36,195 nucleotides of DNA from Nanobdellati archaeon (GTDB lineage: Archaea > Nanobdellota > Nanobdellia > Woesearchaeales > JAADFO01). The position numbers and the translations under genes are program-made. Below the pieces are notes generated by a model that saw only the letters and a program-made list of their open reading frames with translations, had not been told where the DNA came from and ran no database searches. Within the stretch, counting starts at the first letter, position 1. Each line of letters begins with the position of its first letter. The DNA is taken from positions 1 through 36,195 of the forward strand of contig JAADFO010000030.1 of the NCBI GenBank assembly GCA_013152815.1. The letters are read 5' to 3'. This document shows positions 1 through 33,068 of this stretch, piece after piece.

Positions 1-1263
1 TGCTACCTGGACCAGGACGGCAAACCCACCTGCGCCAGCACAGGCATCTGCGATGTATGCAACGGACCGTTGGGAATGTTCTTCGATCCGAGTATCATCC
101 CCTCAACAACAAATGCAAATACGTTCACCTGCGAGAACCTGCTCCAATGCTACAAAGACAACAGCCTCACCACGGTCGACCTGGCCAGGGGCTGCGACCA
201 GGTGAGCAGCTGCCAGGACTACTACTCAAAGGATGCCTGCGAGACGAACAAGTGCCTCACTGAAACCGATGGAGACCGGTGCAAATGGAAACCGTTGTAT
301 GGTGAGCTCGGCTTCGGCCTCTGCGTAGATAAGGACCCGGAGAAGATCGACTGCAGCATGTGCGGAGGCAGGATATACAATAAAAGCATAGCTAAAAAGG
401 ATGTAAAACCATATGATTATTACAGCAAGGCATTGGACCTCTGCACAGCCGACTACTGCATGACGTTGAACCCGGAAGGCACCAATGTCTGCTACTACGG
501 AGGAAGCGCGATTGTCTTGGCAAGGATGATATCGGCTGCATCGACTATGGCAACCAGGATGACTGCATAGGACAGACAGGAAATGTTGCGGTAGATGTCG
601 GCTCAACCACCAAGTCAGGAACCAATGAGGTGACGACCAGGAGCGATGATTTCTTCGGCTACGGACTCTGCAAATGGGAAAACAAATGCTTCAAAGATGC
701 TGATAGTGATGACCAGCAAGATGAGACAGGCAAAAGCGACAAGAAGAAAACAGACTTCTACCCGCCGCGGACAAACTTCCTCCCGCTTGAAAAGCATTAC
801 CTTGAAAATACTAACTACAAAACAGAACCAGTGATGAAGGACCAGAACGGCTTCTACGTGACCAACGGGCTTGACCTCGTCTTCTTCGCCAGCGACCAGG
901 TCCCTGCAGGAGACGGGTTCGACGACTGCGAAAGCGACCCCAGAGGATTCCTGCTCAGGCCTCAAGGATACGCTGATAAGCCTCACAGCCTACGGACAAC
1001 CATTGGACTATCCGAACATCGCCTTCTCTAAAACAGATTGCACAGCAGATGACAAATATGACCTCTGCGAGAAAACCTACGAGAACAACGGAGGCACTAT
1101 CCCGGACGATGATGACCATAACTACACCCTTGCCTATTTCAGCCGAGACAACATCCACAATCTCGAGGTGGTCCAGAACTTCCCTCTGCGCATCGACAAG
1201 AAGATACCCAGCATCCTGAACTGGAACCAGCCAGAGAACGGAGATATCCGCTGTATGAGATAG
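1..1263 (+). CDS. Cys-rich N-terminal part of the giant protein, split over ORFs 70-570, 630-1031 and 871-1263
   Basis: Repeated Cys patterns (SCQDYYSKDACETNKC, GCIDYGNQDDC, RCKW/LCKW) run on across the frame changes. Confidence 0.7.
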
Positions 1264-4200
1264 ACAGGGATTTCCTCAACGGCAAGAACTCGAGACTGAC
1301 CATCCACATAGAGGCCGACGAGCTCGTGCAGTGCAACGATGAGCTTCAGAATCCTGCGGGCACATCCATAATCAGTAACCTGAACCAGATGGCCTTGGTC
1401 ATCCATGACCCTCAACTCAAAGACGACTTCAACGTTACCCAAGACAATGAAATCTATTCACGGTTCTGGACCTCTTCCTTCGGCAGCAGAAGCGCAGACA
1501 CTGCTGGCCTGGCAGACGGCCTGTATTGGTATAAGCTTTATTGCACAGACATGGCCGGCAACCTGTATACAGGCACCAAAAGCATCAGGGTGGATGGCGA
1601 CACCAGCACCTACGATCCCTATCCGAAGAACGTCATCGACAATGAAGACGACAAGGTCAGGCTCAGCATACGGACAGAGAACCAGGCAAGATGCAAATAC
1701 AAGCTCGGAGCAGTGGGCACAGGAGATGATGTCTCTGGTGAGACCTGGAAAAATATGGATGAGGATGGAACCTACAGTGCTACGGATACGGACATGCGCT
1801 TCATCAAGGACATCGACCTCACCACAGATTATCCTGACCTTTCAAGCTGGAACACCACCTATGTCTTCGACGTGAACTGCACAATCACCATCGGCGGCAG
1901 CACAAGGGATTCCCTTGACCAAATCAGCTTCACCTTTGACCAGGTCCCACCCACAGTCAACATCTACGACACCGAGAACAAGGAAGAGCCCACTGACATA
2001 GACAGCTGGAGAGGGGACCAGGACATCTTCCTGGAATGCCTGGACAGCCCACGCCATGGCTTCGGATGTGCAAGCGTAGACTACTGCACCGTAAGGGGAG
2101 AAGGCCAGACCTGCGACACCGCAGCCAACCAGGGAACAGTGGAGAACGATGACCTTGCGATCTTCGGGAGCAGCAAAGGCATCGACCTTCCGCCCTACCC
2201 GCATACCTTCTGCTACAGGGCGACCGAGAACACAACGACCAACGGAGACCCAGCCAATACCGCTACACCACCGACCACCAGCCTGCGCTACGGCAATGAT
2301 CATGTCTTCGGCGGCCTGAGCGAAGAAAAATGCGTCTACATCAAGGTGGATGCAGACAGGCCAGAACTGTTCATCACCAACCTCACTCCAGACAGCCAGT
2401 CAGTCTATGCCACCGACAAGATACCCTACACTGTGGAAGGCAAGCTCATCGACTGGAGCTATTACATGAAGAGCGGGGAAGAGCTTCAGACCAACAACGA
2501 AAACCCTGACTACCTTGAAGAATGGACCTTTGCCGACTTCCTCATGAGAGGGACCATCACGAACAACGCCAACCGCAGGAACGCGCTGGACATACTCTTC
2601 AAGGATATTCCTTCAGGGAACAAGTATGTAGCACGCATAGACCAGCGGGACAACACCCTCAAGATATACAAGAACGACCTTACGCAGCCACAGAACATAC
2701 TTGCTGAACTCGACGGGCGGGACATCAATAAAGACACCTATGACTTCGAGCTCAAGGCAGAGACAAAGGATGGCGTCACCGTCTTCATCTTCGATGTCTT
2801 CGACCTCGGAAAGATAACCGCGACCATCCCGGAAGACAACACCTTCGGCAGGGTAGGGGTCAGGGACGCGCTGGATAATGCAGAGCTCTCGAACCTGCTC
2901 GTCCTCGATCCTTCCATCCCTGTGCAGAACAACATCAAATGGGAGATTGCAGGGACAAATACCAAGGATGAGTTCGACTTCACCACCCAGGAGATCAAGA
3001 GTGCGGACGGCAGGACCATCGATGTCACAGGAACAGACGAAGGCATCTACACGGTCAACATCCGGGCCTATGACAAGGGCGGCAACATGCATTTCTCGCC
3101 ATACAGCGATCCCGGAAGCCTCAGGGAAGGGGACTGGGAGCCCTATTACTTCTATCTTGATACAGAACCGCCGACAATCACAAGCCCCCTGCCCGGAGAC
3201 GGCCCGAAACACATCGAATATGGCGCAGACATGACCATCACAGCTCATATCAAAGAAAGCGCTGCCAACGAACCGGCTGCCATCGTCAACGTCAGCCAGG
3301 CCATCCTGAGGACATCGAAGGAATCGGTGCAGATGGTCTTCGACGACAGCGGGAACCCCACAGACAGAGAGGAAGGAGACTGGACTGCTGAGCTTGACCC
3401 ATCCATCTACGGACTGGGAACCTATGAATACAGCATCTGGACAGAGGACGAGTTCCATCATCAGACCTCGATGCTCTACTCGCCTGCAGACGATTCGGGT
3501 TTCGTCATCGAAGATAATACCGCTCCAGTCATCACCCTGGACGATCCTGCGGTGGAATCCTTCAACAAGTGGGTATCAGGGACCTCTGTCGTCACCATCA
3601 GCGGGACCTACACCGAACTGCTGCCGGTGGAGATGAACATCATCGTCATAGGAGAAGACCCCCAGACGCAATACGCAAAGATACCTGTAAGCCTGTCAGG
3701 TGGAGGAAGCGACATCCCCTTCTCTCAGAGCATCAACCTCTTTGAAGGAGAAAACACGATCTATGTCGAGATGCTCGACCAGGGAGAGCAGCTCAGAGGA
3801 GATGATCCGACCGAGTCATCAAGGCTGACCATCTACTATGATACGAAACCGCCTGAACTCAAGGGAGACAAGCCAGACATCCAGGGAGAGAACGCCGGAG
3901 GAGGCAGAGGAACAGACGACCATAAAAAATTCGAGTACGGCTACAACATCACCATCGACGCGACCTTTGACGATCCGCAATGGACAAACATCGTCACCGA
4001 GATAGGGTACAGCATCCGACAGGCTTCACCCCGGTCAGCGACACCATCACCGATTTCCTCGACCAGGACTACTCCCTGCATCACTTTCTGGAATCCAAAG
4101 AAGACCCGGCCATGCCCAACACCTATGACCAACCGGTCGGCAACTACACCCTTCGACTGACAGCCAAGGACTACTACGGCAACACCTATGACCAGGAATT

Positions 4201-7200
4201 CCCCTTTGAGGTCATCGACACAAGACCGCCCATGCTCACGGTCCAGATCAAGGACAATGATGTTGCCGTGTCCACCATCACCAACGGCAAGGGAAGCACA
4301 AAATACTACGACGTCATCATCACGTCGGACGAGCCGCTGGAAGACATAGACCGCTTCGGGTTCAGCTACGGGAACTGCAACGGCCCGTTCATCGACGCCT
4401 TCGACAAACCGGAAATGGTCGGCCAGGACCCCTATACCTGGTCATCACAGATCTTCCTGATCAACGGGCTCACCTGCCTCGAAGGCCAGGAAGGGGATGC
4501 AGACCTCATCATCGAAGGAGCAGACCACAACGGCCAACGCTTCGACACCACCGATGTCGAGAACCCGACCTTCTCCATAGACACGAAGGGGCCTGAGCCG
4601 CCTGCATTCTATGAGTATAGGACAGCCTATGCCCCGGGAGATGCCCAGACCTACTACTATGTCTCCGATGCCAATCTGCAGGTCTACGGATTCACCGCCG
4701 AGCAGCTGTCATCAGCCGGAAGCTACCGGGTCGGCATCAACTACGGAAAGGTGGAGACCGCAGACGAAGAAGCGTTCAGCACGGTATCTGCGCAGGACAA
4801 CCCCTCGACCTTCAACGGAGAAGAGGTCACCGGCGAGGTCCGCACCGACAGCCCGGAAGGATCCACCCTGCTCAACATCAACGAGCAGAAGACCGCATTC
4901 TTCAACGCCGACACCTTTGTCGGCATCACCGCAGACCACAAGTCGGATTTCACCTATTATGACATCGAAAGCTCGGTCTTTGAACAGGAACCCTACTGGA
5001 CATCGATCACGCTGGCAGAGCCTCTCCAGAAGGACGTGACGACCGGAGAGAGCGTCTATCCGTTCGCCTACCAATATCCCACCGGCTGGTTCGATTTCCC
5101 CTACAGCTATGCAGGGGAAGGGAGCCTGTACTTCTTCGGGTTCGCCTATGACCCGTTCGACAACCCCTCTGAGGACAGCAGCGTCTTCCGGGTCATCTAT
5201 GACAACACGCCGCCGGCCATCTCTCTGGAACCGTCCGACGGGACGATAAGCGCAGACGAGACGTCCACCATGACGGCCCATCTGAGCGATACCAACGCCG
5301 GCCTTGACTGTTCCTCCCTGGAGATACGGATCAACAGGTCAGAGATCTTCGACACCTCGACGGTGGTGCAGTCCTGCGGCCCGGACAGCGGAGCATGCCA
5401 GGCGACTTCCTGCCAGGACGGCAACGATGAGCAGCAGATCATCATCGACGGCAGCATGTTCGACAATGATGGGGAACCGGGCATGGACGAAGGAAGCTAT
5501 CTCCTGGAAGTGAAGATAAAGGACAACGCCGGCAACGAGCAGGTATCCCGTTCGGCCTTTGTGCTGGACAGCGGCGTCACCCATGAGCCGGAGATGCACA
5601 TCGACGGCGGCCTCACCTACCCTGAGGATGACCGCATGTACGTGAGCAACCTCAGGCCGACCATCGGGATAGCCTACACCCATGATGTCCCTTTCCTCGT
5701 CGACCTTTTCGACGCATTCAAGCTGCCGACAGACCAGGGCCTTGAGCTGAGCATCGCGCGGGTGGATGACCAGACCTTCACCATCGACTTCAACAGGGAC
5801 CTGGAGGAAGCCTATACGTTCCACCAGGACGACCCCACCCGGCAGACGCTTGAACTCCACTCGAAGAAACAGGTGGACGGAGAGTGGAGCAGGCCGGGAA
5901 GGCACTTCAAGGACTTTGTCATCGACGTGACCCCGCCGGTCATCACCCCGGATCCGTTGGACGCGGTCAACAGCGGGACCTTCACCCTGACCGGGAGCTT
6001 CACCGACTGGAACATCGACCATATCGAGGTCTATGGTGATGACCTCTACATGCCTGCTGAAGGCTACACGGTCGCCCTCGATGACCAGGTCGATGACCAT
6101 GGCCGGTTCAGCGTGGATGTGGAGCTCTACAGCCCGACCAACGAACAGAAGACCGTCCATCTCAAAGGCTACGACAAGGCAGGGAACGTCGGAGAAGAGG
6201 CATCGCTCACCTTCATGCTGGACACCATGGAACCCTATGTCTCCTGCGACGGCTCTACCGACCCCGTCTGGACCAACCAGGATCAGACCATCACCATCAC
6301 CGCGACCGACAGTGGCTCAGGCATCAAGGCCATCTATTACTGCGAGGCAGCGGGCTGCGAACCCTACCCGAACGGGAACATCCACAACGAAAGCGACACC
6401 CTGGTGCTGGAATACACAGGACATAGAGGAGAGCTGCCCATCAGCTTCATGGCCCTGGACAAGGCAGACAACCCATCAGGCACGGGCATGTGCATGGTCA
6501 GGATAGACCAGGAAGTCCCGAAGACATCAGCCACGACCACCCAGGCAGACGGCACCACCTACACCGAAGACACCTGGACCAACCAGGAAGTCATGGTCGA
6601 GCTTGCATCCGCCGACTGTGAAGAGGATTCTGGCTGCGCAGGGACCTTCTACTGCGACGGTGAAGGATGCACGCCTGACCTGCTCTACACAGGACCGGTG
6701 GTGCTCGACGAAGGTACCCATCACTTCCGTTACTCCTCTCACGACCAGGCAGGCAACATAGAAGAGCCGCAGGAACTGACCATCCTCATCGACCAGAGCC
6801 GGCCCTCCCTTGGGCAGATCACCCTCTCCAACGATAATCTGCAATACTATGGACCAGAGAACACGCTCTACACCAACATCCCGGCCCTGACCATCAGCGG
6901 CAGCATGGACGATGACGGCATGATCATCATCGACACCACCGACGCGGTAGGAAGCCCCCATACCATCGAGGTCACCAAGGATGCTCCCTTCAGCGTCGAC
7001 CTGGACTTCGCCGACCAGGGCATCGACTGGCGCGAACACAACATCACCATAACAGGGATGGACAAGGCAGGCAATCCGGTCTCAGCAGACTATCAGAACG
7101 TGGTGGTCTATTCCACCGTGGCCCCGTTGATCACCATGATAGACCCCAGGGAGGTCTGTGAAAGCGGCGGGAGCGACTGCGGCTATTACACCAATGCCCA

Positions 7201-10200
7201 AGACCTGGTGCTGAGTCTCGAGACCCATGAGATCCCAGGAGGAGCAGGATCTGACTGCGAGATCGACCCGCGCTCCAACCTGGTGAACCAGGTGCAGCCC
7301 ATGGCCACCGATGACCATGAGACCCACACCTATGACGGCTACGGAACCGTGGCCGACAACCAGGAGTTCACCTTCATCATCAACTGCAAAGACAGGCTGC
7401 TGGGCAACCAGGGCCAGTTGACAGGGACGTTCCTCGTCGACCAGATGAAACCGGAACTGTCCCTGACCCTTGACAACGGCAAGCTTGCAAATGCAGAGAA
7501 TAACCTCTGGAACCTGCTCCACCGCATCGACTCCCTCAAGCAGACCGACATCGTCGCCAAGGACACCAGCTTCGACAGCGGAGAGCTGGACACCGGCAAG
7601 CTGCGCTGCGAGCATAGCTGCCTGCCGGACGAGACCCACTGCGGCGATGCAGGCTACACCGTCCCCTTCGCCGACGGCGACTCCTACCAGAACGAGCAGA
7701 AGGAGACCATCATCTTCGATGAGGACAGCACCGACCAGGAATATGCCTATGCAGTCACCTGCTATGACAAGGCGGGCAACCACGACACGAAGGAGATACG
7801 GGTCCTTGACCTGGTCGCCACCGGAGAGATGCTCGTCCTCGGAACGAGCCCTGCTGACAAGGGCTTCACCAACGAGAACAGCCTGGTGCTCTCGGCGAAC
7901 ACCTCACAATATGCCCTCTGCCGCATCAGCTTCGACCATGGATCGCTGCAGGACATGGACGGGACCACCATGGAGCACCGCTACCCGACCAGTGCCGATG
8001 AAGGAGCGCACCAGGCGGTCTTCGACTGCGTCTCTACCGACTCCTTCAACGCAGCGCAGAAGACCATCGACTTCACCGTAGATACAATCCCGCCCAGCAT
8101 CCCTGTCATCATCTCCACCACCCACCCTGAGGATACCAAGTCGAGCAGCACCAGCCCGGCCTTCGGATTCACAGCAGCCGACGAGACCTCGGGCATCAGG
8201 GGGTACAGCTTTGACTTCGACCGGAGCCCAAACACCCAACCGGACGAGGTCGTCGAGCCAGGCACGTCGGTCAGCTACCAGGATGTGGAGGACGGCGACT
8301 GGTACTTCCACGTGAGGGCCATCGACCAGGCAGGCAACGCAGGCGACACGGCAACCTACCATATCATCATCGACACGACCGCCCCGGAACCGCCGGTCAT
8401 CATGGTCCAGCCAAAGCTCACGAACGACGGGAACATCGAGATCCTCGGCACCACAGCATCGTCCGACGGACCGGTGACCGTCCAGGTCTACATCCGCGAC
8501 GAGCAGGACAACCTCCTCGACACCCTGACCACAGACTCTGACGGTTCCTTTATCCTGGACACCCAGCTCATGGGCGACACAGAGCATTATTTCATCACCG
8601 CAAAGGCCGACGACAACCTGGGTAATGCACTCAGCATGGCCTCGAACATCGAAGAGGCATGGTACATCACCCAGGCACCAAAATTCCTCTCCATCACGCC
8701 GAGCGACCAGACCCGTACCTGCAAGGTGGACAAGGTCGTCGCGCTCCTCGAACGCTACGGCACAGCCGAAATCTCGCAGGATTCGACCGTTACGGTGATT
8801 GACAGCTCAGGCGGGGAGATGGTCACCGACAAGGGTGTCGACTTCCGCTCCCTGGAAGGAGGAGAGTACGGACAGCTGACCTTCACGCCTGCCGCAGGGA
8901 CTTTCCCTGACGGTAGCTATGACGTATCGATCCTCGCCCTGGATGAGCTTGGTAACAGCAAGACCTACCAAAGCTACTTCGAGGTGAACGAGTTCGCCCC
9001 CTGCACAGGATGGAACATCACCGACGTCATGCCTCTCAACAGGATACACCTCCAGGACATCCCGAGCCCGACCAACCAGGATACGATCACCATCGCAGGA
9101 ACCCTTACCTATGAGGACAACAGCCCAGCCGAGAACGCGACGGTCATCATGGCCGTCAAATACGACGACCAGGCCTATGAGGAGATAGCGAGGCAGCGCA
9201 CCGACAGCCAGGGAAGGTTCTCCCAGGACTACCGGTTCAGCGAAGGAGAAGGCCCCTATTACATCTATGTGGAGGCCCATGACGTCACCGGCTCGGACTC
9301 GGATTCGCTCACCAAGCAGGTCAACTACGTCACCAGCGCCCCTCTGTTCGAGACCATCCTGCCGGCAGAAGGGGATACCCTGAGATCTGTGGACGAGATC
9401 ACCTACCAGATCCTCCAGAACGACGATGCAACCCTGGTCTTCCATGATGCGACCGACATCGATCTCTACCGGCAGGACAACAGCATCGTGCAGACCGGCA
9501 AGAGCGCCATGGAGTGTGGTGTCCCGGGCTGTCTCATGGGCAAGCTGACCATCAACAGCCCCCTCGAAGACGGCACCTATCATGTACGGGCGACCACTGC
9601 AGACATCCTGGGCAACCGGGAGACCTATGACAGTCCCTTCACCATCGACACGGACGCTCCGGAGATCGCGTTCGTCAGGCCCACAAGCCAGGAGTTCGCC
9701 GACGACGAGGTCTATGTGGTGGACTCCTCCTTCGAGATCTTCGGCAAGGTCAGCTCTCCCTATCCGCCCTTCAGCGGGACGGTCAGACAGAACAACGATC
9801 CGGCAATCACACTCAACATCTACGAGGCAGACGGAGAATGGCTCTTCACCAACTTCTTCACCCTGCGGGATGGAGACAACGATTTCGTGTACACCATCAC
9901 CGATGCGCTGGGCAACACCGCAACCACGACCGTGACGGCCCACAAACGTCCCTCCGGATATGCGCCCAGCATCACCATCACATCGCCAGAGGAAGGAAGC
10001 ACCTACTTCCAGGACCAGGTCCTCAGAGGCACCTACACCTACCAAGAAGAAGACCTCCTGCAGCTCTCCCTCTACCGCAACGGCATCTACGAGAAGGACA
10101 TCGAAGGGTTCGGCGACGGTAGCTTCTCTGAGCCCATCTCGCTGGAGGAAGGCTCCAACGATATCCGTGTGGTGGCCACCGACCGCTGGGGAGGGACCGA

Positions 10201-16200: not shown

Positions 16201-19200
16201 GCGCCTGGACAATGGACTCACCTCTCCCACAGACCAGAGAGACATCACCATCAGCGGGACGGTCTTCGACCGGGCAACCGGACAGCCCGCGCCGCTGGTG
16301 GACCTGCTGTTCGACGCCGACGGGACCGAAGAGACCGGCACCTCAAGCCCCAACGGCAGGTTCAACTTTGACTATTCCTACGGAGCAGCCAACAAGAAAT
16401 ATACCTTTGCTGTCTCTGCTGTGGTGGGCGACGGGTTCACCAGCGAACCGGCCATCACCGAAGCGTGGTATGTGACATCAATCCCGTCCATGAACATCTA
16501 CCCCAACAGCAAGGACAGCCACAATACAGTAGAACAGCTTGTCCTGCTGGGGACCCAGGTGGATGATGCCACCCTCACCCTCGACGACATCCAGCTGACC
16601 AGGCAGAACAACGCAGACAATGACCTCATCCGGCTCGACAAGGACAGCCTGCAACGCTTCGGCTGCAGCGATGAGGATCCTCAATGTGTGGGATTTAGCG
16701 TCGATATCGCTCCGGAAGAACAGCCGCTCCCAGAGGGACAGTACCGGATCACCTACCAGCTCTCAGACACCCTGCAAAGCGAACAGAGGACAAGCACGTT
16801 CACCATCGACAGGACCGCTCCCCGGATAAGATTCACCTTCCCCGACGCCCTGAGCGACCCCGCCAGCAGCGAGAGCATCAACGGCATCTACACCGACCAG
16901 GACAACATAGAGCTGAGAGGATACCTGCTTATGGAGGGCAACAGCCAGTGGCAGGACAGCAACATCCAGACCATCTATGACTGCCCGTCGGGTTCCTGCT
17001 TCACCCACCAGGTCTCCCTGGTCCCGGGAACACAGACCATCACCCTCAGCGTGACCGACGACCTGGACAGGACCGGCACCAGGACGGTCATCGTCCACCG
17101 CAAGCCCACCGGAGGGAACAGCGTCAGCATCACCAGCCCGAGCGACGGCATCACGGTCTATTTCAAGGACGTGAGCATCGAAGGCGTCTTCGACGACCCC
17201 TACATCAACCACGTTGAGGTCTCGGTGAACGGCGAGGTGCAACAGGACCTGCAGAACCTCTATGGAAACACTTTCAGCGCAGACGTGACCCTCACGAACG
17301 GCAGCAACGAGATCGTGGTGCGGGAATATGACCAGTGGGACGAATTCAGCCAGGACCAGATCACGCTCTTCTACGACCAGTCCGGCCTCTCCTCGAGCCT
17401 CAGCTGCCCAGGAGGCAACGGCATCTGCTTCACCCGAGCAGAGCAGATCACGATCAACGGCAATATCCCAAGCGCCCTGCCGGTGGAAGCGTCCCTCTTC
17501 GTCGAGAACAGGCAAGGCACCCTTGAGTATCCCCTGACGCTCGCGGGGAACGACAACAGCTTCACCCAGAGCCTCGACCTCGCGGAAGGGGAGAATACGC
17601 TCTACATCCTCGCGACCGATGCCACCACCACGTCACAGTCCAATGAGCTGCTGATCATCAAGGACACGCAGGCACCGAGCATCTCCCTGGAGATGATCGC
17701 GGCAGGCGACACCATCAAGGACCAGGGAGTGACCTCTGAGACCCCTGTCGAAGTGAAGGTCGCCTATCGGGAAGACTATCCCGGCAGGATACATGCAACG
17801 CTCAACGGCCACATCCTCTTTGACGACTATCCTGCAAGCAGCCCTCTCCTCATCGAGGACGTTCCTCTGGACAGCGCAGGGGACGGCAGGAAGGTCCTCG
17901 TAGTCACCATGGACGACCTGGCCGGCAACCGCAACACCTCATCTTCTGTAGTGTATCTCGACACCAGAACACCTGAGACCACCATAACGGCCGTCACCTC
18001 CCATGACGGCCCTGTGGTCTTCAGGGGCGGCATCTACAAGACCGCCCAGGACAAAGCAACCATCCACGGCAGCTACCGGGAAGAGCATCTGGAAGGCATC
18101 TTCCTGGATGACGGCAGGACCGAGGCAGACATCAACAGGGAAGATTCCACATTCACCCTGGACGTTCCGCTGCGCGGCAAGGCAGGGGAAGAGGAGGCCA
18201 ACAACATCACCATACTCACCCTTGACCAGGCAGGCCATGTCGCCGAGACCCGAACCCGGATCGTCCGGGACCAGGCAGCCCCTGCTGTCCAGATAACCTC
18301 CCTGCCCTTCGACGGCAGCAGCTATTACACCCAGGAGGAGACCCCTGAGCTTCATGTGGTCACCGATGAACCGGCAACGTGCAGCATCACCTATCTGCCG
18401 GCCAACTTCACCAACCCGTACACCCAGGCGATGGCAGACAGCGCCAACGGCATCGACCATGATGCGACCATCGAGATCCCGCTGCCCAAGGAGACCGGCA
18501 GCGACAGGACCAGCACCATCACCATCCGCTGCGTCGACGAACTCGGCAACGACCAGCCAGAGACCGAAGCCCGCATCGTGCTTGACGACACGCTTCCCAC
18601 CATCGGCAGCTATGGACTCAGCCAGAGCATCCTTCTCACCGACGAAGGCACCAGGAAATCCTACCTCCTGGTCAAGACGCCCTACACAGAGATCCTGGTG
18701 GACGACGCCTCAGAACCGGTCAGGTGCAGGTACGGGACGACGCCTTCCTTCGAGAGCATGACTGCCTTTCCCGATGAGGCGGCCTTCAAGATGATGAAGC
18801 ACGCCAGCGACACGCTGCAGCTGGAGGACGGCAACGAATATGACTATTATGTGCAGTGCGAGGACCGTGCCCTGCGGAAGACCGGCATGAAACAGCTCCA
18901 TATCAAGGTGAACCTCTCCAAAGACGTCTGGATCATCGATGAAGGACCGAAGGACTACGCCATCGGACCTGACGTCGACGTGTGGGTCAAGACCTTCCGC
19001 AACGCCACCTGCAGCCTCGACACCGCCTATGAGGACGGCAACGCCATCACCGACTGGGTGAAGGACGTGTTCGACCCTGCCACCGAGATGAGTTCCTACC
19101 TCTACGGTCCGACAGCAGGAGAGGACTGCGGGACCATCAGCGGAAGCGGGACAGACACAGAGAGCGAACAGGCATGGGGCTGCATGGGAGAAGCCATGCT

Positions 19201-22200
19201 CGACAATTGCCGGCCGGCATCGGTCTCGATGGAATTTCCGCTGCAAGGCGAGAATGGCCAGACCATCAACCTGGACTATTCCTACCGCATCTACGGCATG
19301 CAAGAGGGAAAATGCGTGATAAGCCTCCAGCTGGTCTCCGGAGACATGCCAGAAGGGGATCTGACACCTGCGTACCAGGAGGGCGCATGGTTTCAATGCC
19401 CGGTGGATACAGCTGCCTACGAACAGGAATCCCGTAACAACGGACAGAACCCTGAAGATGATCTTGCCAAATTCGCGCAAAATGTCTATTTCATATGGGC
19501 ATTCACCCACACAGACCCTGACGCCGGCTGTTTCGGGACCATGGGGACCCCTGACGGCAACCTTCCTCAGGACCCGCCGGGCATCCAGGGCATCGGCCAG
19601 GGCCTGGTCTTCTACCACAGCAAGACCCTCACCGGCCTCGATGACTACACCACCTATGCTTTCGACGTCACCTGCACCGATCCCCAGAACGTCTTCGACG
19701 ATGCCGCCGGCAGGATCTCCTTCCTGGTCATACCCGAGCTGGACATCAGCCTCATCGCGCCGAAACATGGCTACAGCACCTCTTCCATCTATGATGCGGT
19801 CATAGGGACCACAAGGGATGCGGAATGCAGATGGGACATCTCTGGAGTCGCCCTGCCCTTCGACCTCAAACGGCCATTCAACCAGACCGGCGGAAGGACC
19901 CATACGCTCTCACAGATAGACTGGTTCACCCCGAACAACCAGAAGATGCACGTGATGTGCAAAGACACCTACGGATACACCAAGGAGGCCTCCTTCGGCC
20001 TGCACCATGAACCGTTCCCTCCGACCATCACCACCGCAAAGGCCGAACCAGAAGAGATCCTCCAGACGGTCAACAACAACCTCCAGACGACGCTCGTGGT
20101 GGAGACCTACGGCAAGCCGTCGCTCTGCAGGTACAGCACCACCACCATGAACTACAGCCAGATGGAGCATGTGTTCGAACCTTTCGACACCGACAATGCA
20201 GACAGCTACCAGACGACCCATCGTGCGCTCATCACCGGCCTTGCCGACAACGGCCATTATGAGTACAACGTGGCCTGCGAAGGGCTCTCCGGCCTGGTCT
20301 CGAAGACCATGAAGATACGCTTCCTCACCGACCTCGAAAGGAGCCTGCAGATACGCTTCAACCGACCGGCAGACGGCGAGAGCTACAACAGGACGACCCA
20401 GGACCTCAACATCACGACCAACAAGGAGACCCTCTGCTATTACCGGACCGAACCGGACGGCTACCAGATGGGCATGGAGAATTCTGCACAGACGCAGCAT
20501 TTCACGCGGAACGCCGTCCATGTGAGCAAAGAAGGAACCAGCACCGTCTATGTGACCTGCTATTTCGGAGAGGAACAGGCAGATGCCAGCAGCAGCTTCA
20601 TCGTCGACCTGAGCCCGCCGGAAAGGCCTGTCATCACCCAGGACAACGTCACCCGATACACTGACAGGCTGACCGCTTCCTGGACAGCCCAGGACAACCT
20701 TTCAGGCATCGGCTATTATGAGATCGCCATCGGCAGCGCCTCGGCAACACAGGACATCCTGGACTGGACCGATGTAGGACGGGACACCAGCAGGACGGTC
20801 CACGGCCTCAACCTCAGCGACGGCGCAAGATATTACTGGTTCGCACGAGCCACTGACCGGGTCGGCTGGCACGGGCCTTCTGCGGTCAGCACAGGCATCA
20901 GGATAGACACCACCCTGCCGGTGGAGAACAACACGCCCAGCTGCCATGACGGCATCAGGAACCAGGGAGAAGCAGACATCGACTGCGGCGGCTATCTCTG
21001 CTCATCATGCGATATCAACAGCTCATGCAACGATGACAACGACTGCCTTTCCGGCAACTGCAAAGACAAGAGCTGCCAGGAAGCCATCTGCAAGAACGGC
21101 CGCTCAGACGCCGAAAGCCAGGAATCAGACATCGACTGCGGCGGAGACTGCGATGACTGCAGCAACGGAAAGGCCTGCTTCCACGATACAGACTGCGAGA
21201 GCAGGTACTGCGACGGAGGGACCTGCAAGGAATCCAGCTGCAGCGACGGTCTCCACAACGGCTTTGAGACAGATACAGATTGCGGAGGCGGATGTGACCT
21301 CTGCGACATCGGCTTCGGCTGCGGCGGTCCAGGGGATTGTTCCTCCGGCGTCTGCAGCGACGGCGTGTGCAAGGCATCCTCCTGCGACGACGGCCTGAAG
21401 AACGGTGATGAGACCGACGTGGACTGCGGAGGCAGCTGCGACGGCTGCAGCAACGGAGACGCCTGTGAACTGAACATCGACTGCACCTCAGGGATCTGTG
21501 AAAACAGCATCTGCAAGACCGGGAACGGACCAAATGAGACCACTGACACCGACGGCGACGGCATGCCTGACGACTGGGAGACGTTCTATGACCTCAATCC
21601 CAACGACCCCACCGATGCCAATGGTGACCTGGACAAGGACGGCCTGTCCAACCTGGGAGAGTACGAGGAACATACCGACCCGCTCATGACCGACACCGAC
21701 GGCGACACCTATGATGACAACTACGAGCTTCTTGAGGGATACGATCCCACCGACCCGAATTCAAAACCGCCGGGCAGCAACCTGCTCTACATCATCCTCC
21801 TGATACTGCTCATCCTCGCTCTCCTCGGCGGAGGAGGATACATCGGATACAAGGAACTCTACGAGAAGAAAAAAAGACCGCCGCTCAAACCGCTGGTCGC
21901 ATCGAGAAGGACGACAGCCCCCATCAGGAAGAAGGCTCCACCACGACATGGTCCTGCACCCAGTCAGACCAGGATCACCCAGGCCTTCGGCATGGCAAGG
22001 GCAAGAAGACCGACAGCACGGAGCGTCCTGCCTGCCAGGAAACCTGTGCTGAAACAGCCGGCCAGACCGAAAGAGGAATGGATCGAGGTGGGCCAGCTCA
22101 AGAAAAAGATGCCCGAAGGAGACAAGGACGTGCTGGACAAGCTCTCAGGACTCATCAAGACGAATGATGTCTTCGACGAGCTGGAATCGGTCACCAGGGG

Positions 22201-22603
22201 ACTCAAGGAAGGAAAGTTCCCGACCAGGGCAAAGCCTGCGAAGAGCAAGACAGACACACCAGTGCAGAAGAGGCCTCGGGCGAAGAAGGCACAGGAGACC
22301 AGGCCGGCGAAGGACGTCTTCCGAAGCCTGCAGAACCTTGCGCCGGAAGAGACAGAAGAGAAAGCCTTCAAAGACCTGGAGAAGATAGCAGAGGAAGAGA
22401 CCCGGGCGAGGGAACAGAAAAAGAAGGAAACGAAGAAGCCTGGACAACCCAGGAGACAGACCAAGCAGATGCCTGTCCCAAAGAGAAAAATCCCGCAGAG
22501 GACGAAGAAGACGAGACAGAAGAAGACGCCCAGGAGACCGAAGGCTCCGGGAGCGAAGAAGACCTCCAGGAAGCCGAGGAAGAAACATGCGAAGAAATCC
22601 TAG
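1..22603 (+). CDS. Giant membrane-anchored Ig-repeat surface protein (putative adhesin), 5'-truncated, reconstructed across four apparent frameshifts (~508, ~940, ~1243, ~4016), at least ~7,530 aa
   Basis: Frame 1 is open from base 1 (CYLDQDGKPTC...). Protein-like sequence with the same C-ending codon bias continues across each junction in a new frame: CYYGGS|DCLGKDDIGC, DCESD|PEDSCSG, QPENG|YPLYEID, IGYSI|PTGFTPVS. No separate signal peptide at the internal ORF starts. Ends at TAG 22601-22603. Confidence 0.8.
1326..4160 (+). CDS. Ig-like domain segment of the giant protein (coding frame valid from ~1245 to ~4016)
   Basis: DxxPP-type linkers (DQVPP, DTEPP, DNTAP, DTKPP) and DxxGN motifs as in the downstream ORF. 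The C-terminal ~48 aa look out of frame. Confidence 0.8.
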   Translation: MQCNDELQNPAGTSIISNLNQMALVIHDPQLKDDFNVTQDNEIYSRFWTSSFGSRSADTAGLADGLYWYKLYCTDMAGNLYTGTKSIRVDGDTSTYDPYPKNVIDNEDDKVRLSIRTENQARCKYKLGAVGTGDDVSGETWKNMDEDGTYSATDTDMRFIKDIDLTTDYPDLSSWNTTYVFDVNCTITIGGSTRDSLDQISFTFDQVPPTVNIYDTENKEEPTDIDSWRGDQDIFLECLDSPRHGFGCASVDYCTVRGEGQTCDTAANQGTVENDDLAIFGSSKGIDLPPYPHTFCYRATENTTTNGDPANTATPPTTSLRYGNDHVFGGLSEEKCVYIKVDADRPELFITNLTPDSQSVYATDKIPYTVEGKLIDWSYYMKSGEELQTNNENPDYLEEWTFADFLMRGTITNNANRRNALDILFKDIPSGNKYVARIDQRDNTLKIYKNDLTQPQNILAELDGRDINKDTYDFELKAETKDGVTVFIFDVFDLGKITATIPEDNTFGRVGVRDALDNAELSNLLVLDPSIPVQNNIKWEIAGTNTKDEFDFTTQEIKSADGRTIDVTGTDEGIYTVNIRAYDKGGNMHFSPYSDPGSLREGDWEPYYFYLDTEPPTITSPLPGDGPKHIEYGADMTITAHIKESAANEPAAIVNVSQAILRTSKESVQMVFDDSGNPTDREEGDWTAELDPSIYGLGTYEYSIWTEDEFHHQTSMLYSPADDSGFVIEDNTAPVITLDDPAVESFNKWVSGTSVVTISGTYTELLPVEMNIIVIGEDPQTQYAKIPVSLSGGGSDIPFSQSINLFEGENTIYVEMLDQGEQLRGDDPTESSRLTIYYDTKPPELKGDKPDIQGENAGGGRGTDDHKKFEYGYNITIDATFDDPQWTNIVTEIGYSIRQASPRSATPSPISSTRTTPCITFWNPKKTRPCPTPMTNRSATTPFD
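3980..22603 (+). CDS. Main uninterrupted frame (6207 aa) of the giant surface protein: Ig-like repeats, FN3-like domain, Cys-rich repeats, TSP3-like repeats, TM anchor, basic tail
   Basis: 18.6 kb open frame with strong codon bias, many D-x-x-x-P linkers and D-x-A/L-G-N strands, and hydrophobic helix LLYIILLILLILALLGGGGYIGY at 21782-21850. Confidence 0.95.
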   Translation: MDKHRHRDRVQHPTGFTPVSDTITDFLDQDYSLHHFLESKEDPAMPNTYDQPVGNYTLRLTAKDYYGNTYDQEFPFEVIDTRPPMLTVQIKDNDVAVSTITNGKGSTKYYDVIITSDEPLEDIDRFGFSYGNCNGPFIDAFDKPEMVGQDPYTWSSQIFLINGLTCLEGQEGDADLIIEGADHNGQRFDTTDVENPTFSIDTKGPEPPAFYEYRTAYAPGDAQTYYYVSDANLQVYGFTAEQLSSAGSYRVGINYGKVETADEEAFSTVSAQDNPSTFNGEEVTGEVRTDSPEGSTLLNINEQKTAFFNADTFVGITADHKSDFTYYDIESSVFEQEPYWTSITLAEPLQKDVTTGESVYPFAYQYPTGWFDFPYSYAGEGSLYFFGFAYDPFDNPSEDSSVFRVIYDNTPPAISLEPSDGTISADETSTMTAHLSDTNAGLDCSSLEIRINRSEIFDTSTVVQSCGPDSGACQATSCQDGNDEQQIIIDGSMFDNDGEPGMDEGSYLLEVKIKDNAGNEQVSRSAFVLDSGVTHEPEMHIDGGLTYPEDDRMYVSNLRPTIGIAYTHDVPFLVDLFDAFKLPTDQGLELSIARVDDQTFTIDFNRDLEEAYTFHQDDPTRQTLELHSKKQVDGEWSRPGRHFKDFVIDVTPPVITPDPLDAVNSGTFTLTGSFTDWNIDHIEVYGDDLYMPAEGYTVALDDQVDDHGRFSVDVELYSPTNEQKTVHLKGYDKAGNVGEEASLTFMLDTMEPYVSCDGSTDPVWTNQDQTITITATDSGSGIKAIYYCEAAGCEPYPNGNIHNESDTLVLEYTGHRGELPISFMALDKADNPSGTGMCMVRIDQEVPKTSATTTQADGTTYTEDTWTNQEVMVELASADCEEDSGCAGTFYCDGEGCTPDLLYTGPVVLDEGTHHFRYSSHDQAGNIEEPQELTILIDQSRPSLGQITLSNDNLQYYGPENTLYTNIPALTISGSMDDDGMIIIDTTDAVGSPHTIEVTKDAPFSVDLDFADQGIDWREHNITITGMDKAGNPVSADYQNVVVYSTVAPLITMIDPREVCESGGSDCGYYTNAQDLVLSLETHEIPGGAGSDCEIDPRSNLVNQVQPMATDDHETHTYDGYGTVADNQEFTFIINCKDRLLGNQGQLTGTFLVDQMKPELSLTLDNGKLANAENNLWNLLHRIDSLKQTDIVAKDTSFDSGELDTGKLRCEHSCLPDETHCGDAGYTVPFADGDSYQNEQKETIIFDEDSTDQEYAYAVTCYDKAGNHDTKEIRVLDLVATGEMLVLGTSPADKGFTNENSLVLSANTSQYALCRISFDHGSLQDMDGTTMEHRYPTSADEGAHQAVFDCVSTDSFNAAQKTIDFTVDTIPPSIPVIISTTHPEDTKSSSTSPAFGFTAADETSGIRGYSFDFDRSPNTQPDEVVEPGTSVSYQDVEDGDWYFHVRAIDQAGNAGDTATYHIIIDTTAPEPPVIMVQPKLTNDGNIEILGTTASSDGPVTVQVYIRDEQDNLLDTLTTDSDGSFILDTQLMGDTEHYFITAKADDNLGNALSMASNIEEAWYITQAPKFLSITPSDQTRTCKVDKVVALLERYGTAEISQDSTVTVIDSSGGEMVTDKGVDFRSLEGGEYGQLTFTPAAGTFPDGSYDVSILALDELGNSKTYQSYFEVNEFAPCTGWNITDVMPLNRIHLQDIPSPTNQDTITIAGTLTYEDNSPAENATVIMAVKYDDQAYEEIARQRTDSQGRFSQDYRFSEGEGPYYIYVEAHDVTGSDSDSLTKQVNYVTSAPLFETILPAEGDTLRSVDEITYQILQNDDATLVFHDATDIDLYRQDNSIVQTGKSAMECGVPGCLMGKLTINSPLEDGTYHVRATTADILGNRETYDSPFTIDTDAPEIAFVRPTSQEFADDEVYVVDSSFEIFGKVSSPYPPFSGTVRQNNDPAITLNIYEADGEWLFTNFFTLRDGDNDFVYTITDALGNTATTTVTAHKRPSGYAPSITITSPEEGSTYFQDQVLRGTYTYQEEDLLQLSLYRNGIYEKDIEGFGDGSFSEPISLEEGSNDIRVVATDRWGGTEEDNVVIDYGSGAFPYTIILDPLVSPTNSKNLNVTGTVLSLSNEPAAGITVEVSVDGSTRRTLSDGQGRFSVDTFTLSKSNYEYSITAAAIVGDSIEYYSDLAMESVWHIDTIPPTAMSPDETQSYYEVDHISLMTEEVDGTTSSISNPELVKGGTIYALVETAQGSCGDHCRIFNWDITGGLTEDGRYTFRFDISDGLNSESQTHEFTIDRNALQITFTDPAELEVPPGSTEGIYVTDQHMTLYGKVDGTNVDTPDDISSHDFTRIFTCQDGGVCFTKDVDLIPGTNDITLTATANDGRSGSKTATINLQGTSYNPKITILNPADGSRSFISKIVVSGTYSIDDSLLTDLTLQVDDGNPVSIEHANGAFSHLVSFTDEKPYLITVSMTDKWGTTYQDSVVVTYGGSSADVPLQVTLDPIDSPTNMLPLILTGQVMDTDTDSPAADTLVVLDYDNREDRTTTDQDGRFSFDIPDPEENHHFTFLSYALEGDGFPGGPDTLELWHITRIEDASVYPAVPSDTIYNAVQDIIIQVPQIDGAMVGLADESITLRKDNSALFFTLGSVSRSTDGETATFTVPILDELPTDDYLIDYTLIDSLQNSRTESRPFRIDTQAPVIDVDTPEEFTDPQSKESIDGLYTTENQVTITGTVSGLGIDSPADVTDHNLDHVTDCSGKVCYAKEEQLVPGRNEVTLQVTDSQGRTGKRTLIFLKRPDQYDASITITEPAATQTYYSHTPVRGTYSIPTDDLAGITADLDGTPQDVQYANGHFSFTTDLVEGTNHITVTMTDKWGTTYQDSHEIEYGTATTEVPYDVMLDPLTSPTDHNSVTISGTVRNTDSGTPAEGIAVNIHIDDDLIQTTSGTAGTFSTTYDFPRTDEEYLISAQAVVGDGFTGEPDTTHVWFIRTLPETAIHPNPTDSYNLVDRIIIHADQKDDATLSITGMSLLNQQTLQPYGFLGTAESDCGGQCKSFSTPIDINDPNTMPEGTYELTYIIQDTLQSEQRTSTFTIDRSAPDIDIAQPSVFSDPESKESIDGWYTSIQDLTITGTLSGLGIGDAADVIADNLDSVTDCTQGVCFSKAVTLSSGTQTITLSVTDAQGRTGTRTLTFHLQPTNYNPSIIIQGPESGGTLTKNNLIYGTYTIDDASIDSMAVSVDGTGQEDVEHSNGDFTARITISDTGTSTVTISMTDKWGTTYQDSISLTYGGTDVPYSITLASDTPSPTNAESVLLSGTVADTTTSGPAADIPVQIRYEGQITTTTTATDGTYEKRIALNKDNHQYLFDAVALAGDGFPSEPSNTVKLWHVNRLGDLIIYPDSTTPYNDVSVIKMIGQQIDDATLSIRNPQLLREPSTDIPLGPTTQATCGGQCREFSIPINTPLEEGSYTLTYTVSDTLQDEQRQATFTVDKSTPIITITTPPALTDPGSTTSLTGIYTTEDTMYLEGTIDGLGITDATDIAAHNFDQVFDCGNDICFNTLVALRPGTQEITLTATDPQDRTGLRSFTVHKQPTGFDPEVTIDIPSSSSTFTSNTPVRGSYTLPEDEVETVRLLLNGNEVARPGHSNQEFSGTVTLDSGSNTIRAEVTDKWGDTHIATRTITYGTSQIPYSIILDGLTSPTLLGTITISGTVTDINTGGTAADVLVSIEDDYDRQQTTTGSDGRFSSRFSLPYPDEPYLFSATALIGDGFPGEPATAMLWYINAIPPAVIHPNDQDTYNSADTIILEVQQLDDATISIQSPRLTLDNVLQDIGTITQTSCGPDCRHFEIPVQQALEDGRYDLTYRIDDTLQEETRHHQFTIDHTAPTIGITTPAELADPKSTESINGIYTDQTTMLLNGRLSGIGIDGVEDVKPGHNLGSLFPCSDDPQQVCYNRMVVLDQGTTEVELQATDKDGRQGHRTIIFHRKPSSYAPGVSIATPKGSTFTKTNPLEGTYTVPEDTLVSLSLYLNGAHVKDLEPNQGQFRDSVVLDPDAHPNIITVTATDKWGTTYEDSVSVSYGGGEFPYFLRLDNGLTSPTDQRDITISGTVFDRATGQPAPLVDLLFDADGTEETGTSSPNGRFNFDYSYGAANKKYTFAVSAVVGDGFTSEPAITEAWYVTSIPSMNIYPNSKDSHNTVEQLVLLGTQVDDATLTLDDIQLTRQNNADNDLIRLDKDSLQRFGCSDEDPQCVGFSVDIAPEEQPLPEGQYRITYQLSDTLQSEQRTSTFTIDRTAPRIRFTFPDALSDPASSESINGIYTDQDNIELRGYLLMEGNSQWQDSNIQTIYDCPSGSCFTHQVSLVPGTQTITLSVTDDLDRTGTRTVIVHRKPTGGNSVSITSPSDGITVYFKDVSIEGVFDDPYINHVEVSVNGEVQQDLQNLYGNTFSADVTLTNGSNEIVVREYDQWDEFSQDQITLFYDQSGLSSSLSCPGGNGICFTRAEQITINGNIPSALPVEASLFVENRQGTLEYPLTLAGNDNSFTQSLDLAEGENTLYILATDATTTSQSNELLIIKDTQAPSISLEMIAAGDTIKDQGVTSETPVEVKVAYREDYPGRIHATLNGHILFDDYPASSPLLIEDVPLDSAGDGRKVLVVTMDDLAGNRNTSSSVVYLDTRTPETTITAVTSHDGPVVFRGGIYKTAQDKATIHGSYREEHLEGIFLDDGRTEADINREDSTFTLDVPLRGKAGEEEANNITILTLDQAGHVAETRTRIVRDQAAPAVQITSLPFDGSSYYTQEETPELHVVTDEPATCSITYLPANFTNPYTQAMADSANGIDHDATIEIPLPKETGSDRTSTITIRCVDELGNDQPETEARIVLDDTLPTIGSYGLSQSILLTDEGTRKSYLLVKTPYTEILVDDASEPVRCRYGTTPSFESMTAFPDEAAFKMMKHASDTLQLEDGNEYDYYVQCEDRALRKTGMKQLHIKVNLSKDVWIIDEGPKDYAIGPDVDVWVKTFRNATCSLDTAYEDGNAITDWVKDVFDPATEMSSYLYGPTAGEDCGTISGSGTDTESEQAWGCMGEAMLDNCRPASVSMEFPLQGENGQTINLDYSYRIYGMQEGKCVISLQLVSGDMPEGDLTPAYQEGAWFQCPVDTAAYEQESRNNGQNPEDDLAKFAQNVYFIWAFTHTDPDAGCFGTMGTPDGNLPQDPPGIQGIGQGLVFYHSKTLTGLDDYTTYAFDVTCTDPQNVFDDAAGRISFLVIPELDISLIAPKHGYSTSSIYDAVIGTTRDAECRWDISGVALPFDLKRPFNQTGGRTHTLSQIDWFTPNNQKMHVMCKDTYGYTKEASFGLHHEPFPPTITTAKAEPEEILQTVNNNLQTTLVVETYGKPSLCRYSTTTMNYSQMEHVFEPFDTDNADSYQTTHRALITGLADNGHYEYNVACEGLSGLVSKTMKIRFLTDLERSLQIRFNRPADGESYNRTTQDLNITTNKETLCYYRTEPDGYQMGMENSAQTQHFTRNAVHVSKEGTSTVYVTCYFGEEQADASSSFIVDLSPPERPVITQDNVTRYTDRLTASWTAQDNLSGIGYYEIAIGSASATQDILDWTDVGRDTSRTVHGLNLSDGARYYWFARATDRVGWHGPSAVSTGIRIDTTLPVENNTPSCHDGIRNQGEADIDCGGYLCSSCDINSSCNDDNDCLSGNCKDKSCQEAICKNGRSDAESQESDIDCGGDCDDCSNGKACFHDTDCESRYCDGGTCKESSCSDGLHNGFETDTDCGGGCDLCDIGFGCGGPGDCSSGVCSDGVCKASSCDDGLKNGDETDVDCGGSCDGCSNGDACELNIDCTSGICENSICKTGNGPNETTDTDGDGMPDDWETFYDLNPNDPTDANGDLDKDGLSNLGEYEEHTDPLMTDTDGDTYDDNYELLEGYDPTDPNSKPPGSNLLYIILLILLILALLGGGGYIGYKELYEKKKRPPLKPLVASRRTTAPIRKKAPPRHGPAPSQTRITQAFGMARARRPTARSVLPARKPVLKQPARPKEEWIEVGQLKKKMPEGDKDVLDKLSGLIKTNDVFDELESVTRGLKEGKFPTRAKPAKSKTDTPVQKRPRAKKAQETRPAKDVFRSLQNLAPEETEEKAFKDLEKIAEEETRAREQKKKETKKPGQPRRQTKQMPVPKRKIPQRTKKTRQKKTPRRPKAPGAKKTSRKPRKKHAKKS
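9032..17375 (+). repeat. Seven tandem ~1.19 kb (~398 aa) intragenic super-repeats, each of four Ig-like domains
   Basis: Unit starts (P-Y/L...SPT motif) at 9032, 10241, 11432, 12626, 13820, 15002 and 16190. A TDKWG-type motif recurs once per unit. Confidence 0.9.
20942..21516 (+). repeat. Four ~48 aa Cys-rich repeats C-x-D/N-G...E-x-D-x-D-C-G-G-x-C...C
   Basis: Units start at 20942, 21089, 21239 and 21383 (CHDG, CKNG, CSDG, CDDG), each containing DCGG. Confidence 0.9.
21545..21770 (+). repeat. Thrombospondin type 3-like (DxDxDG) Ca2+-binding repeats next to the membrane anchor
   Basis: DTDGDGMPDDWE, DLDKDGLSNLGE, DTDGDTYDDNYE. Confidence 0.85.
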
Positions 22604-24331: not shown

Positions 24332-24378
24332 ACAGGAACAGAACAAGAAGAAGGATGCCCTGAAGAAGGACGTAAAAG

Positions 24379-25008
24379 ATGAGACCGAGCAGAAAGCACA
24401 GGAAAGCCCAGATCCAGATGGGCGAGACCATCGTGGTGGTGTTCATCTTCATCATCCTCATCACCTTCGGCATCATCGCCTATGTGAACCAGCAGACATC
24501 GAACATCGACGAGCAGAAGAGCGAACAGAACGGGCTGCGGGCAACAGAGGTCGTCCTCAGGGCGTTGTACCTGCCGGAAATACGATGCAGCTTCGACGAT
24601 GTCCCGGTCCATAACTGCATCGACCTCGGAAAATTGGTTGCATTCATGAACTATGACCCCATCAATGATTCGATAAAGAACCCCAACGGAATACTTCCCG
24701 CAGGCTCCGCCAGCAGGGCATACGACAGGTTCAACGCGAAATCAGGAGAACCCACGCCAGAAAAATACCTTCCTGCCTACTACGACCTGTTCGGCTACGC
24801 CACCATCAACCTTTCCATCGTCATCCCGACGGTGGATGAGAACGTGGTGTTCACCATCTATAAGAACAGACCAGACTGGGCAGAGACGGGGGCCACCCGC
24901 AGGACCTTCATCCCGGTCTCTACCTACAACCCCCGGGAAAAAGAAGGCTACCGCTACGGCTACGGCATCCTCGAGGTCACCTCATACTATGGAGGACAGA
25001 CCGCATGA
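24379..25008 (+). CDS. Class III signal peptide (prepilin-like) protein, 209 aa
   Basis: RKHRKA|QIQMGETIVVVFIFIILITFGIIAY. Confidence 0.88.
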   Translation: MRPSRKHRKAQIQMGETIVVVFIFIILITFGIIAYVNQQTSNIDEQKSEQNGLRATEVVLRALYLPEIRCSFDDVPVHNCIDLGKLVAFMNYDPINDSIKNPNGILPAGSASRAYDRFNAKSGEPTPEKYLPAYYDLFGYATINLSIVIPTVDENVVFTIYKNRPDWAETGATRRTFIPVSTYNPREKEGYRYGYGILEVTSYYGGQTA

Positions 25009-25520
25009 AGAAGGCACAGATGGAGATGATGGGCCTGGTCATCATCGTCATACTCATCACCATGATCTTCCTGTTCGTGGTGAAGTTCGACATCAGCAAA
25101 GAACCCGCAACACAGAGGAAGGACTTCATCCACTCAGAGCTCGCAGCCAACACCCTCAACGCCATCCTCAAGATGGACAGCCGCTGCGACAAGCTCTCCA
25201 TGACCGAACTCTTCCAGGACTGCGGAAGAGGAGCGCCCATGGTCGGAAAGACAAAGGTGCAATGTGATAACACCGGAAGTCCGCAGGATTCCTGCCTGGC
25301 AATCAACAGCACGGTCCTTGCCATCCTCAACCAGACCCTGTTCATGCAACAGATCAGCTATAACTTCACGGTAAAGTCCACCACTGAGCCAGACCAGAAC
25401 TATCTGACGCTCAGCCAGGTCCACAGGGGAGACTCCTGCAGCAAGTCACGCAAGACAGAGGTCTATCCCATCCCCCTCGACCCGAAGACCATGTTCGTCC
25501 GGCTGGAGATATGCAGCTGA
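25005..25520 (+). CDS. Class III signal peptide (prepilin-like) protein, 171 aa
   Basis: MKKA|QMEMMGLVIIVILITMIFLF; ATGA overlap; GGAGGA just upstream; six Cys. Confidence 0.88.
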   Translation: MKKAQMEMMGLVIIVILITMIFLFVVKFDISKEPATQRKDFIHSELAANTLNAILKMDSRCDKLSMTELFQDCGRGAPMVGKTKVQCDNTGSPQDSCLAINSTVLAILNQTLFMQQISYNFTVKSTTEPDQNYLTLSQVHRGDSCSKSRKTEVYPIPLDPKTMFVRLEICS

Positions 25521-27576: not shown

Positions 27577-27633
27577 GTTTCATTCCTCCGTTCAAGTCGA
27601 TGGACCGATGATGAATCGATATTCACCCATCAA

Positions 27634-27658: not shown

Positions 27659-27677
27659 CGCGGGGCTGTGAAGAAAT

Positions 27678-33056: not shown

Positions 33057-33068
33057 TTGTGCGCATAA

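Follow-up and report, generated by a model that had tools for sequence, protein, structure and literature searches.

The window analysed here comprises the entire contig JAADFO010000030.1 (C30; 36,195 bp) of the Woesearchaeales assembly GCA_013152815.1, a genome of 1.49 Mb in 76 contigs that is 91% complete and comes from a tiny archaeon that probably depends on a host. Positions 1 to 25520 carry on the forward strand a giant gene for a membrane-anchored protein with immunoglobulin (Ig)-like repeats and four genes for class III signal proteins, P1 to P4. They belong to a real, conserved and uncharacterised accessory operon that is probably related to type IV filament systems. The full order of the operon, seen in relatives, is V-W-X/Y-P1-P4.

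Module X, in the 5′ portion of the giant gene (1..4020), encodes a Cys-rich region followed by Ig-like domains. Its start lies off the contig, and four frameshifts interrupt it. The intact 3′ frame (4020..22603) encodes 6,194 amino acids (aa) from the last shift and matches Ig-like Pfam families. About seven tandem super-repeats of ~395 aa each, 30-43% identical, occupy 9400..17800. In self-comparison, they gave offsets near 395, 795 and 1190 aa in the protein and near 1190 bp in the DNA; they form an Ig spacer of variable length. The conserved Y core (19694..20938), detected by blastp and a Y profile, has Ig-like domains with Cys pairs and is common to relatives. It is followed by Cys-rich CxDGxxNxxExDxDCGG repeats and acidic DxDxDG repeats (20939..21778), which we take to be thrombospondin-type-3-like. 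Hydropathy identified a single C-terminal membrane helix, beginning at 21779, and a Lys/Arg-rich tail of ~250 aa, predicted to be cytoplasmic (21779..22603). The sequence-only reading had described a membrane-anchored Ig-repeat protein and had seen no catalytic domain in its visible part. Matches to Pfam Big_13, Glucodextran_B and CarboxypepD_reg, together with the helix and basic tail, agree with this description, and no catalytic family exceeded the Pfam cut-off in the scanned parts (bases 568-1250 left out). Pfam matches to wall-degrading domains or DUF2341 were likewise absent from these parts.

The four small genes are tightly packed, as originally described. The stop of the giant gene (22603) overlaps the P1 start (22587) by 17 bp, ATGA overlaps join P1 to P2 (23198-23201) and P3 to P4 (25005-25008), and 47 bp separate P2 from P3. 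Each protein has a basic leader, a G/A cleavage site and one hydrophobic helix. The proteins are P1 (22587..23201, 204 aa, KKG/QIIG), P2 (23198..24331, 377 aa, RRA/AIAIQFNW), P3 (24379..25008, 209 aa, RKA/QIQMGE) and P4 (25005..25520, 171 aa, KKA/QMEM), all on the forward strand. The N-terminal ~100 residues of P1 are related to the first half of P2. The class III site [KR][GAS] is kept in all four families (40/46 P1, 47/52 P2, 47/49 P3 and 44/48 P4 homologues), in agreement with the earlier assignment of class III signals. Glutamine at +1 is frequent in P1 (32/40), P3 (45/47) and P4 (43/44) homologues, while P2 has it in just 13/47. An A24 prepilin peptidase gene is located on another contig, C73, and has also been found in 5/5 further genomes. 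The P3 family comprises 1,563 clusters at 50% identity. In the Atlas, a homologue of P2 and a short homologue of Y match only Nanobdellota clusters that carry no family name; a cluster of 166 aa matches P2 over its first half. The label Candidatus Woesearchaeota is attached to one of the P2 homologues. DUF7288 was considered as the P4 family and rejected, with an E-value of 0.08 in 2/48 members and 0/41 genomes above cut-off. A promoter and terminator scan with a bacterial consensus yielded nothing above shuffled sequences.

P2 occurs in 54/60 other genomes of the same order, in 39/130 genomes of other orders, and in 139/151 genomes of a high-quality draw dominated by the same order. P3 is present in 38 of the 39 P2-positive genomes from other orders. 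Loci were compared in all 54 same-order genomes and in 20 of the 39 others. P1 to P4 occur jointly in 40/54 same-order loci, and contig ends cut most of the others. The coupling of the giant gene to the prepilin-like genes, proposed from the window alone, is strongly supported: the Y core lies upstream of the pilins in 40 of the 45 same-order loci with at least 2.5 kb of upstream sequence, and the arrangement is seen in other orders too. The Y profile was built from the compared loci; a blastp search started from the protein in the window recovered almost the same loci. Two of the remaining five loci have a truncated or divergent Y relative, and three (L076, L079, L083) lack Y.

X and Y are either fused, with 1,700 to >6,000 aa, or encoded by two genes, each starting with a Sec-type signal. 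W, a fifth class III gene, directly precedes X in 19/21 testable cases, and is often preceded by the large secreted V. A membrane helix is present in 38/40 same-order Y proteins and in 0/11 of those from other orders. Upstream of the pilins, each of the 17 testable loci from other orders encodes a Cys-rich protein of 500 aa or more, with a Y match in 11 of them. The common gene order there is PCNA-W-X-Y-P1-P4-S-layer, with the PCNA-like call read from sequence and the surface (S)-layer call based on Pfam S_layer_C for one gene. The Cys-rich/Ig core measures 550-1,300 aa, and the module is shorter and without anchor in these orders. The giant size and the membrane anchor are therefore regarded as lineage add-ons, and no feature is less conserved than the great length reached in this genome. 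Three deviating arrangements were observed. In locus L051 (G024), the basic tail of Y reads in frame into the class III signal of P1 without a stop, either a natural fusion or an assembly error. P1 was not found in L046 (G013), where a 1,427-aa Y protein itself starts with a class III-like signal. The W + X/Y unit is seemingly duplicated in tandem in six loci of other orders (L109, L110, L113, L114, L124, L127).

The window holds no assembly ATPase, TadC-like platform or peptidase gene, as had been noted, and all three are encoded elsewhere in the genome. ATPase and TadC genes are located on C27, C33 and C44, here unlinked to the operon. C27 carries a class-wide ATPase and a fused double TadC. 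The ATPase has a ~400-aa N-terminal extension and is accompanied by a small, divergent gene whose product probably forms a coiled coil. The two Epd-like pilus loci, C33:9700-23000 and C44:35000-45000, both combine one ATPase gene with two TadC genes and several +5-Glu pilins. Seven of 60 relatives had no TadC Pfam match. Five operon carriers of 99-100% completeness, three of these seven and two with weak matches, were searched for motors. The C27-type ATPase with double TadC was the only pilus-type motor found in them, one of the searches having had no positive control, and each encodes a peptidase. In G023, and only there, the class-wide ATPase directly precedes W.

Cys-rich class III proteins of ~80 aa, encoded on C26 in this genome, form a family that ties operon and motor together by gene neighbourhood. 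One to four tandem copies follow P4 within 2 kb in 20/43 same-order loci, compared with 0/40 control stretches; four loci were left uncounted, three because fewer than 900 bp follow P4 and one because its P4 lies outside the operon. Relatives of these short proteins are encoded no more than 13 kb from the class-wide ATPase gene in 34/76 other-order genomes among the matches listed, with 14 further matching genomes uncounted, and in 34/37 where both share a contig. The C26 family is a candidate major pilin. Small, tandemly duplicated pilins are typical major pilins (PMC4858521). At C26:1264-11141, about nine genes with class III signals stand in a row, the short pilins among them.

Structure models were obtained for P2 and P4 with a predicted local distance difference test (pLDDT) of 93.8 and 89.8, respectively. 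Both open with a helix of ~50 residues, as in pilins. P2 comprises a first helix of 53 residues, a beta domain, an alpha/beta insert and a C-terminal helical bundle, of which the bundle alone (residues 284-367) gave fold matches. P4 shows a broken first helix, two helices and a four-strand sheet. A four-chain model of P1 to P4 with the hydrophobic helices removed scored 0.52, compared with 0.30 for the best control, and dropped to 0 when P3 was replaced. Contact agreement between runs was at least 72% and partner pLDDT at least 76. The mark for complexes was reached by 116/157 solved complexes and 2/215 mismatches; scores of 0.60 or below comprised 18/157 solved complexes and both of the false passes among the 215 mismatches. 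The model lends weak support to a P1-P4 hetero-oligomer.

We lean towards reading the operon as the source of the minor pilins and the adhesin for a lineage-specific type IV filament, found in Woesearchaeales-type archaea and some sister orders. A type IV filament is favoured because a linkage chain runs from the ATPase via the short pilin to P1-P4, X/Y and W. The operon most likely supplies the sticky tip or the base of an undescribed attachment filament. The A24 peptidase (C73) would cut W, P1-P4 and the short pilins. P1-P4 and W would form a hetero-oligomer that primes filament assembly, and the class-wide ATPase with its double TadC (C27) would polymerise the ~80-aa Cys-rich pilins (C26) beneath this priming complex. 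The Sec-exported, disulfide-rich X/Y module would bind the priming complex and contact a surface, either of a host cell or another one. A Y protein without anchor could ride at the filament tip. In the present genome, X and Y are fused, lengthened by Ig repeats and tethered to the membrane, so that the protein would serve as a long adhesin held next to the priming complex. Host attachment we infer from lifestyle only. The earlier proposal of a pilus working with a long adhesin is partly supported, as regards the filament by linkage to short pilins and to ATPase/TadC genes; a match to a pilin fold was not obtained.

Several results weigh against a type IV filament of this kind. P1-P4 have no Pfam, NCBIfam or PDB-sequence family above cut-off, and a PDB sequence search with P1 was empty. 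Glutamate at +5 occurs in none of the homologues of the four families; it is found instead at +6 (P3) or +3 (P4, P2). Profile links of P1, P3 and P4 to the Epd-type minor pilins of the genome are weak (40%, 37% and 15%, respectively). Descent from such pilins fits the best matches, yet at 15-40% probability it is unproven. No solved pilin was among the neighbours that five structural searches listed for the globular folds predicted for P2 and P4, which does not exclude a match. The best neighbours of P4 are Cache/PDC sensor domains (Z 8.4, rmsd (root-mean-square deviation) 2.6-3.6, 94-106 aligned residues). The class-wide ATPase is present in 147/151 class genomes and P2 in 58. Because of this near-ubiquity, their co-occurrence is uninformative, and the ATPase is at most necessary, not specific. 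The TadC gene that precedes P2 in G039 is of Epd type and is not the class-wide one. Short pilins follow P4 in 0/18 other-order loci. Their matches outside the order are weak (E-values of 1e-6 to 1e-13), often in frames of 120-170 aa, and may represent another family. Finally, a distal tip is no possible place for a Y protein anchored in the membrane.

The main rival explanation, rather unlikely in our estimate, dispenses with the filament. Class III signals would just anchor W and P1-P4, which together with X/Y would form a fixed surface complex for scaffolding, ligand binding or sensing, comparable to the class III-signal binding proteins of Sulfolobales. P4, with its Cache-like fold, would bind either a small ligand or the loop of a partner, and the basic tail of Y could relay contact inward. 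Such a complex is consistent with the resemblance of P4 to Cache/PDC domains, which hold the top ranks in two structural searches. Substrate-binding proteins are likewise cleaved by PibD (PMC4858521). The retention of the Y anchor in the same order and the position of the operon between PCNA-like and S-layer genes in many other-order loci fit as well. However, a Z-score of ~8 is middling and lies in the range of common arrangements, with ribosomal uS3 domains reaching 7.0 in the P4 searches, and none of 48 P4 members matched a Cache Pfam family. Major-pilin-like genes after P4 in 20/43 loci, and near the ATPase elsewhere, speak against a fixed complex, and the anchor-less Y of other orders needs a carrier.

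With about four distinct prepilins and one large Sec-exported adhesin, the operon resembles the bacterial PilY1 and minor-pilin tip complex, GspH-K of the type II secretion system and TadE/F/G of the Tad system; its four minor-pilin-like genes, one of them large, recall the GspH-K pattern. Unlike these systems, to which no sequence or fold match was found, its adhesin is membrane-anchored in this order and ranges from ~1,100 to >7,500 aa. A short pseudopilus, pushing the large V and X/Y through the S-layer like a type II secretion piston and not lasting as a pilus, is very improbable: the GspH-K-like set, the S-layer gene adjacent in other orders and the Omnitrophota giant genes adjoining such secretion genes (10.1101/2023.11.21.568195) are in its favour, but the X and Y proteins of relatives start with ordinary Sec-type signals, no outer membrane has to be crossed, and several short-pilin paralogues fit a long filament.

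The type IV filament reading invites comparison with the Epd pilus of Methanococcus maripaludis (clade 1, system 1), which is processed by EppA and has several +1 Gln minor pilins, like the operon (PMC3875500). The Epd locus also combines small stand-alone major pilins with large adhesin-like proteins (PMC3875500; PMC4858521). Since +5 Glu is never present, P1-P4 are not DUF361/Epd pilins as defined in PMC3875500, and they gave no match to DUF361 (PF04021). The Epd-like loci of this genome are separate (C33, C44), the five operon carriers searched for motors lack such loci, and the adhesin is a Cys-rich/Ig protein without a DUF2341 match. The class-wide ATPase can be compared with the type IV pilus ATPase of subclade 4F in nanoarchaea, described with an extra N-terminal domain, a linked coiled-coil protein and no pilins assigned (PMC4858521). 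The N-terminal extension and the likely coiled-coil gene agree with this description, while TadC is a fused double here; compared by description only, the likeness is a lead. Ig-rich giants beside type IV filament genes are also described as the large adhesins of subsystem 4G, arCOG05616 (PMC13705601), and class III neighbours for the Omnitrophota giant genes (10.1101/2023.11.21.568195). Both belong to other lineages and are likened to the operon by description; wall-degrading domains were not detected here.

It is conceivable, although we hold it only tentatively, that the operon belongs to a class-level host-contact machine. The ATPase and double TadC, near-universal in Nanoarchaeia, would build a short-pilin filament, primed in Woesearchaeales and sister orders by W and P1-P4, with folds unlike solved pilins and a Cache-like P4. 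X/Y would be a length-tunable adhesin, the 5′ part of which would be exchanged between strains and set the host range. If true, the orphan ATPase of nanoarchaea would gain the pilins that it has been lacking. A description of the operon was not found in the literature searched; its families may be listed in the supplements S3-S5 of PMC13705601 and in Table 3 (module 98) of PMC8204110. The latter describes a module of 51 mostly unknown families common to Woese- and Pacearchaeota (PMC8204110). A 2026 survey characterises the filament genes of Nanobdellati as scattered, ambiguous and mostly unassignable (PMC13705601). The words pilin, pilus and giant are absent from the main text of a study on 208 complete genomes (10.64898/2026.05.13.725050). 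For the attachment organelle seen in Nanobdellota YN1, the component proteins are described as unknown (PMC11420986). An operon that is almost universal, consists of families without names and is tied by gene linkage to a candidate major pilin and a motor gives named targets for study and bears on partner finding and attachment in Woesearchaeales and related DPANN archaea.

Whether the giant gene is functional in this strain is a question separate from the mechanism of the operon in relatives. The initial reading of a giant of >7,500 aa is right in assuming a single gene; one open frame of that length does not exist, the gene being frameshifted in this assembly. The longest open frame in a three-frame translation is 3980-22603 (6,207 aa). 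Bases 1-4020 are read in frames 1, 3, 1 and 3, followed by frame 2, with shifts near 505, 945, 1250 and 4020. The pieces are collinear with single open reading frames (ORFs) of relatives, including a 6,098-aa protein of a same-family genome, and are assigned to one gene because of this ordered alignment. An X profile, matched at positions 424-664, places base 1 at position 424, an alignment at about residue 790. Some 420-790 N-terminal residues thus lie beyond the contig, and the whole protein would have ~8,000-8,300 aa. An upstream continuation of C30 was not found in its own assembly, neither by overlap with other contigs nor by a match to V or to the N-terminus of X.

The frameshifts are quite likely sequence or consensus errors in a strain-variable, poorly covered segment at the contig end. 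All four fall within the first 4.0 of 22.6 kb, with a chance of ~0.001 if evenly spread, and the pieces contain no in-frame stop. At least three resemble a single-base gain or loss in short C runs. Eleven other long frames, with 36,500 codons together including the intact frame of the giant gene, are unbroken. A true pseudogene is doubtful. The four shifts themselves point to it, as do the failure to find V in the assembly, where the W-like genes found sit in other contexts, and the lower GC content at third codon positions, 0.62-0.75 in the first 4 kb versus 0.71-0.87 downstream, a drop not seen in the matching part of G003. Another apparent frameshift in the genome points the same way. It came from homology-based controls, the first of which covered only 26 kb; the second covered 237 kb, recovered 2 of 4 known sites and yielded four candidates elsewhere in the genome. 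The one convincing candidate is a glycosyltransferase-like gene on C43, near 8250. Programmed slippage was also considered and is unlikely because the runs have just 2-4 bases. Other giant secreted-looking ORFs occur at C48:27969-52739 and on C76, C5, C73 and C16, the largest of which exceeds 8,250 aa and is open at the contig end.

The remainder of the window carries metabolic genes. The region 25597-35145 encodes an H+-pyrophosphatase, a cytidylyltransferase-like (CoaD-type) protein and PyrI, assigned by Pfam. PyrB-, PyrE- and PyrF-like, dephospho-CoA kinase-like and epimerase-like genes were read from sequence, so that pyrimidine synthesis genes are present in this DPANN genome. A 361-aa ORF (29451-30536) of low GC content (45%) without Pfam match was possibly acquired. 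A tRNA-Leu(CAG) was called on the reverse strand (35343-35429). Beside it, a 69-bp partial copy, 91% identical, lies at ~35185-35252 and may be an integration scar. A match to the end of C70 covers the final 91 bp of the contig.

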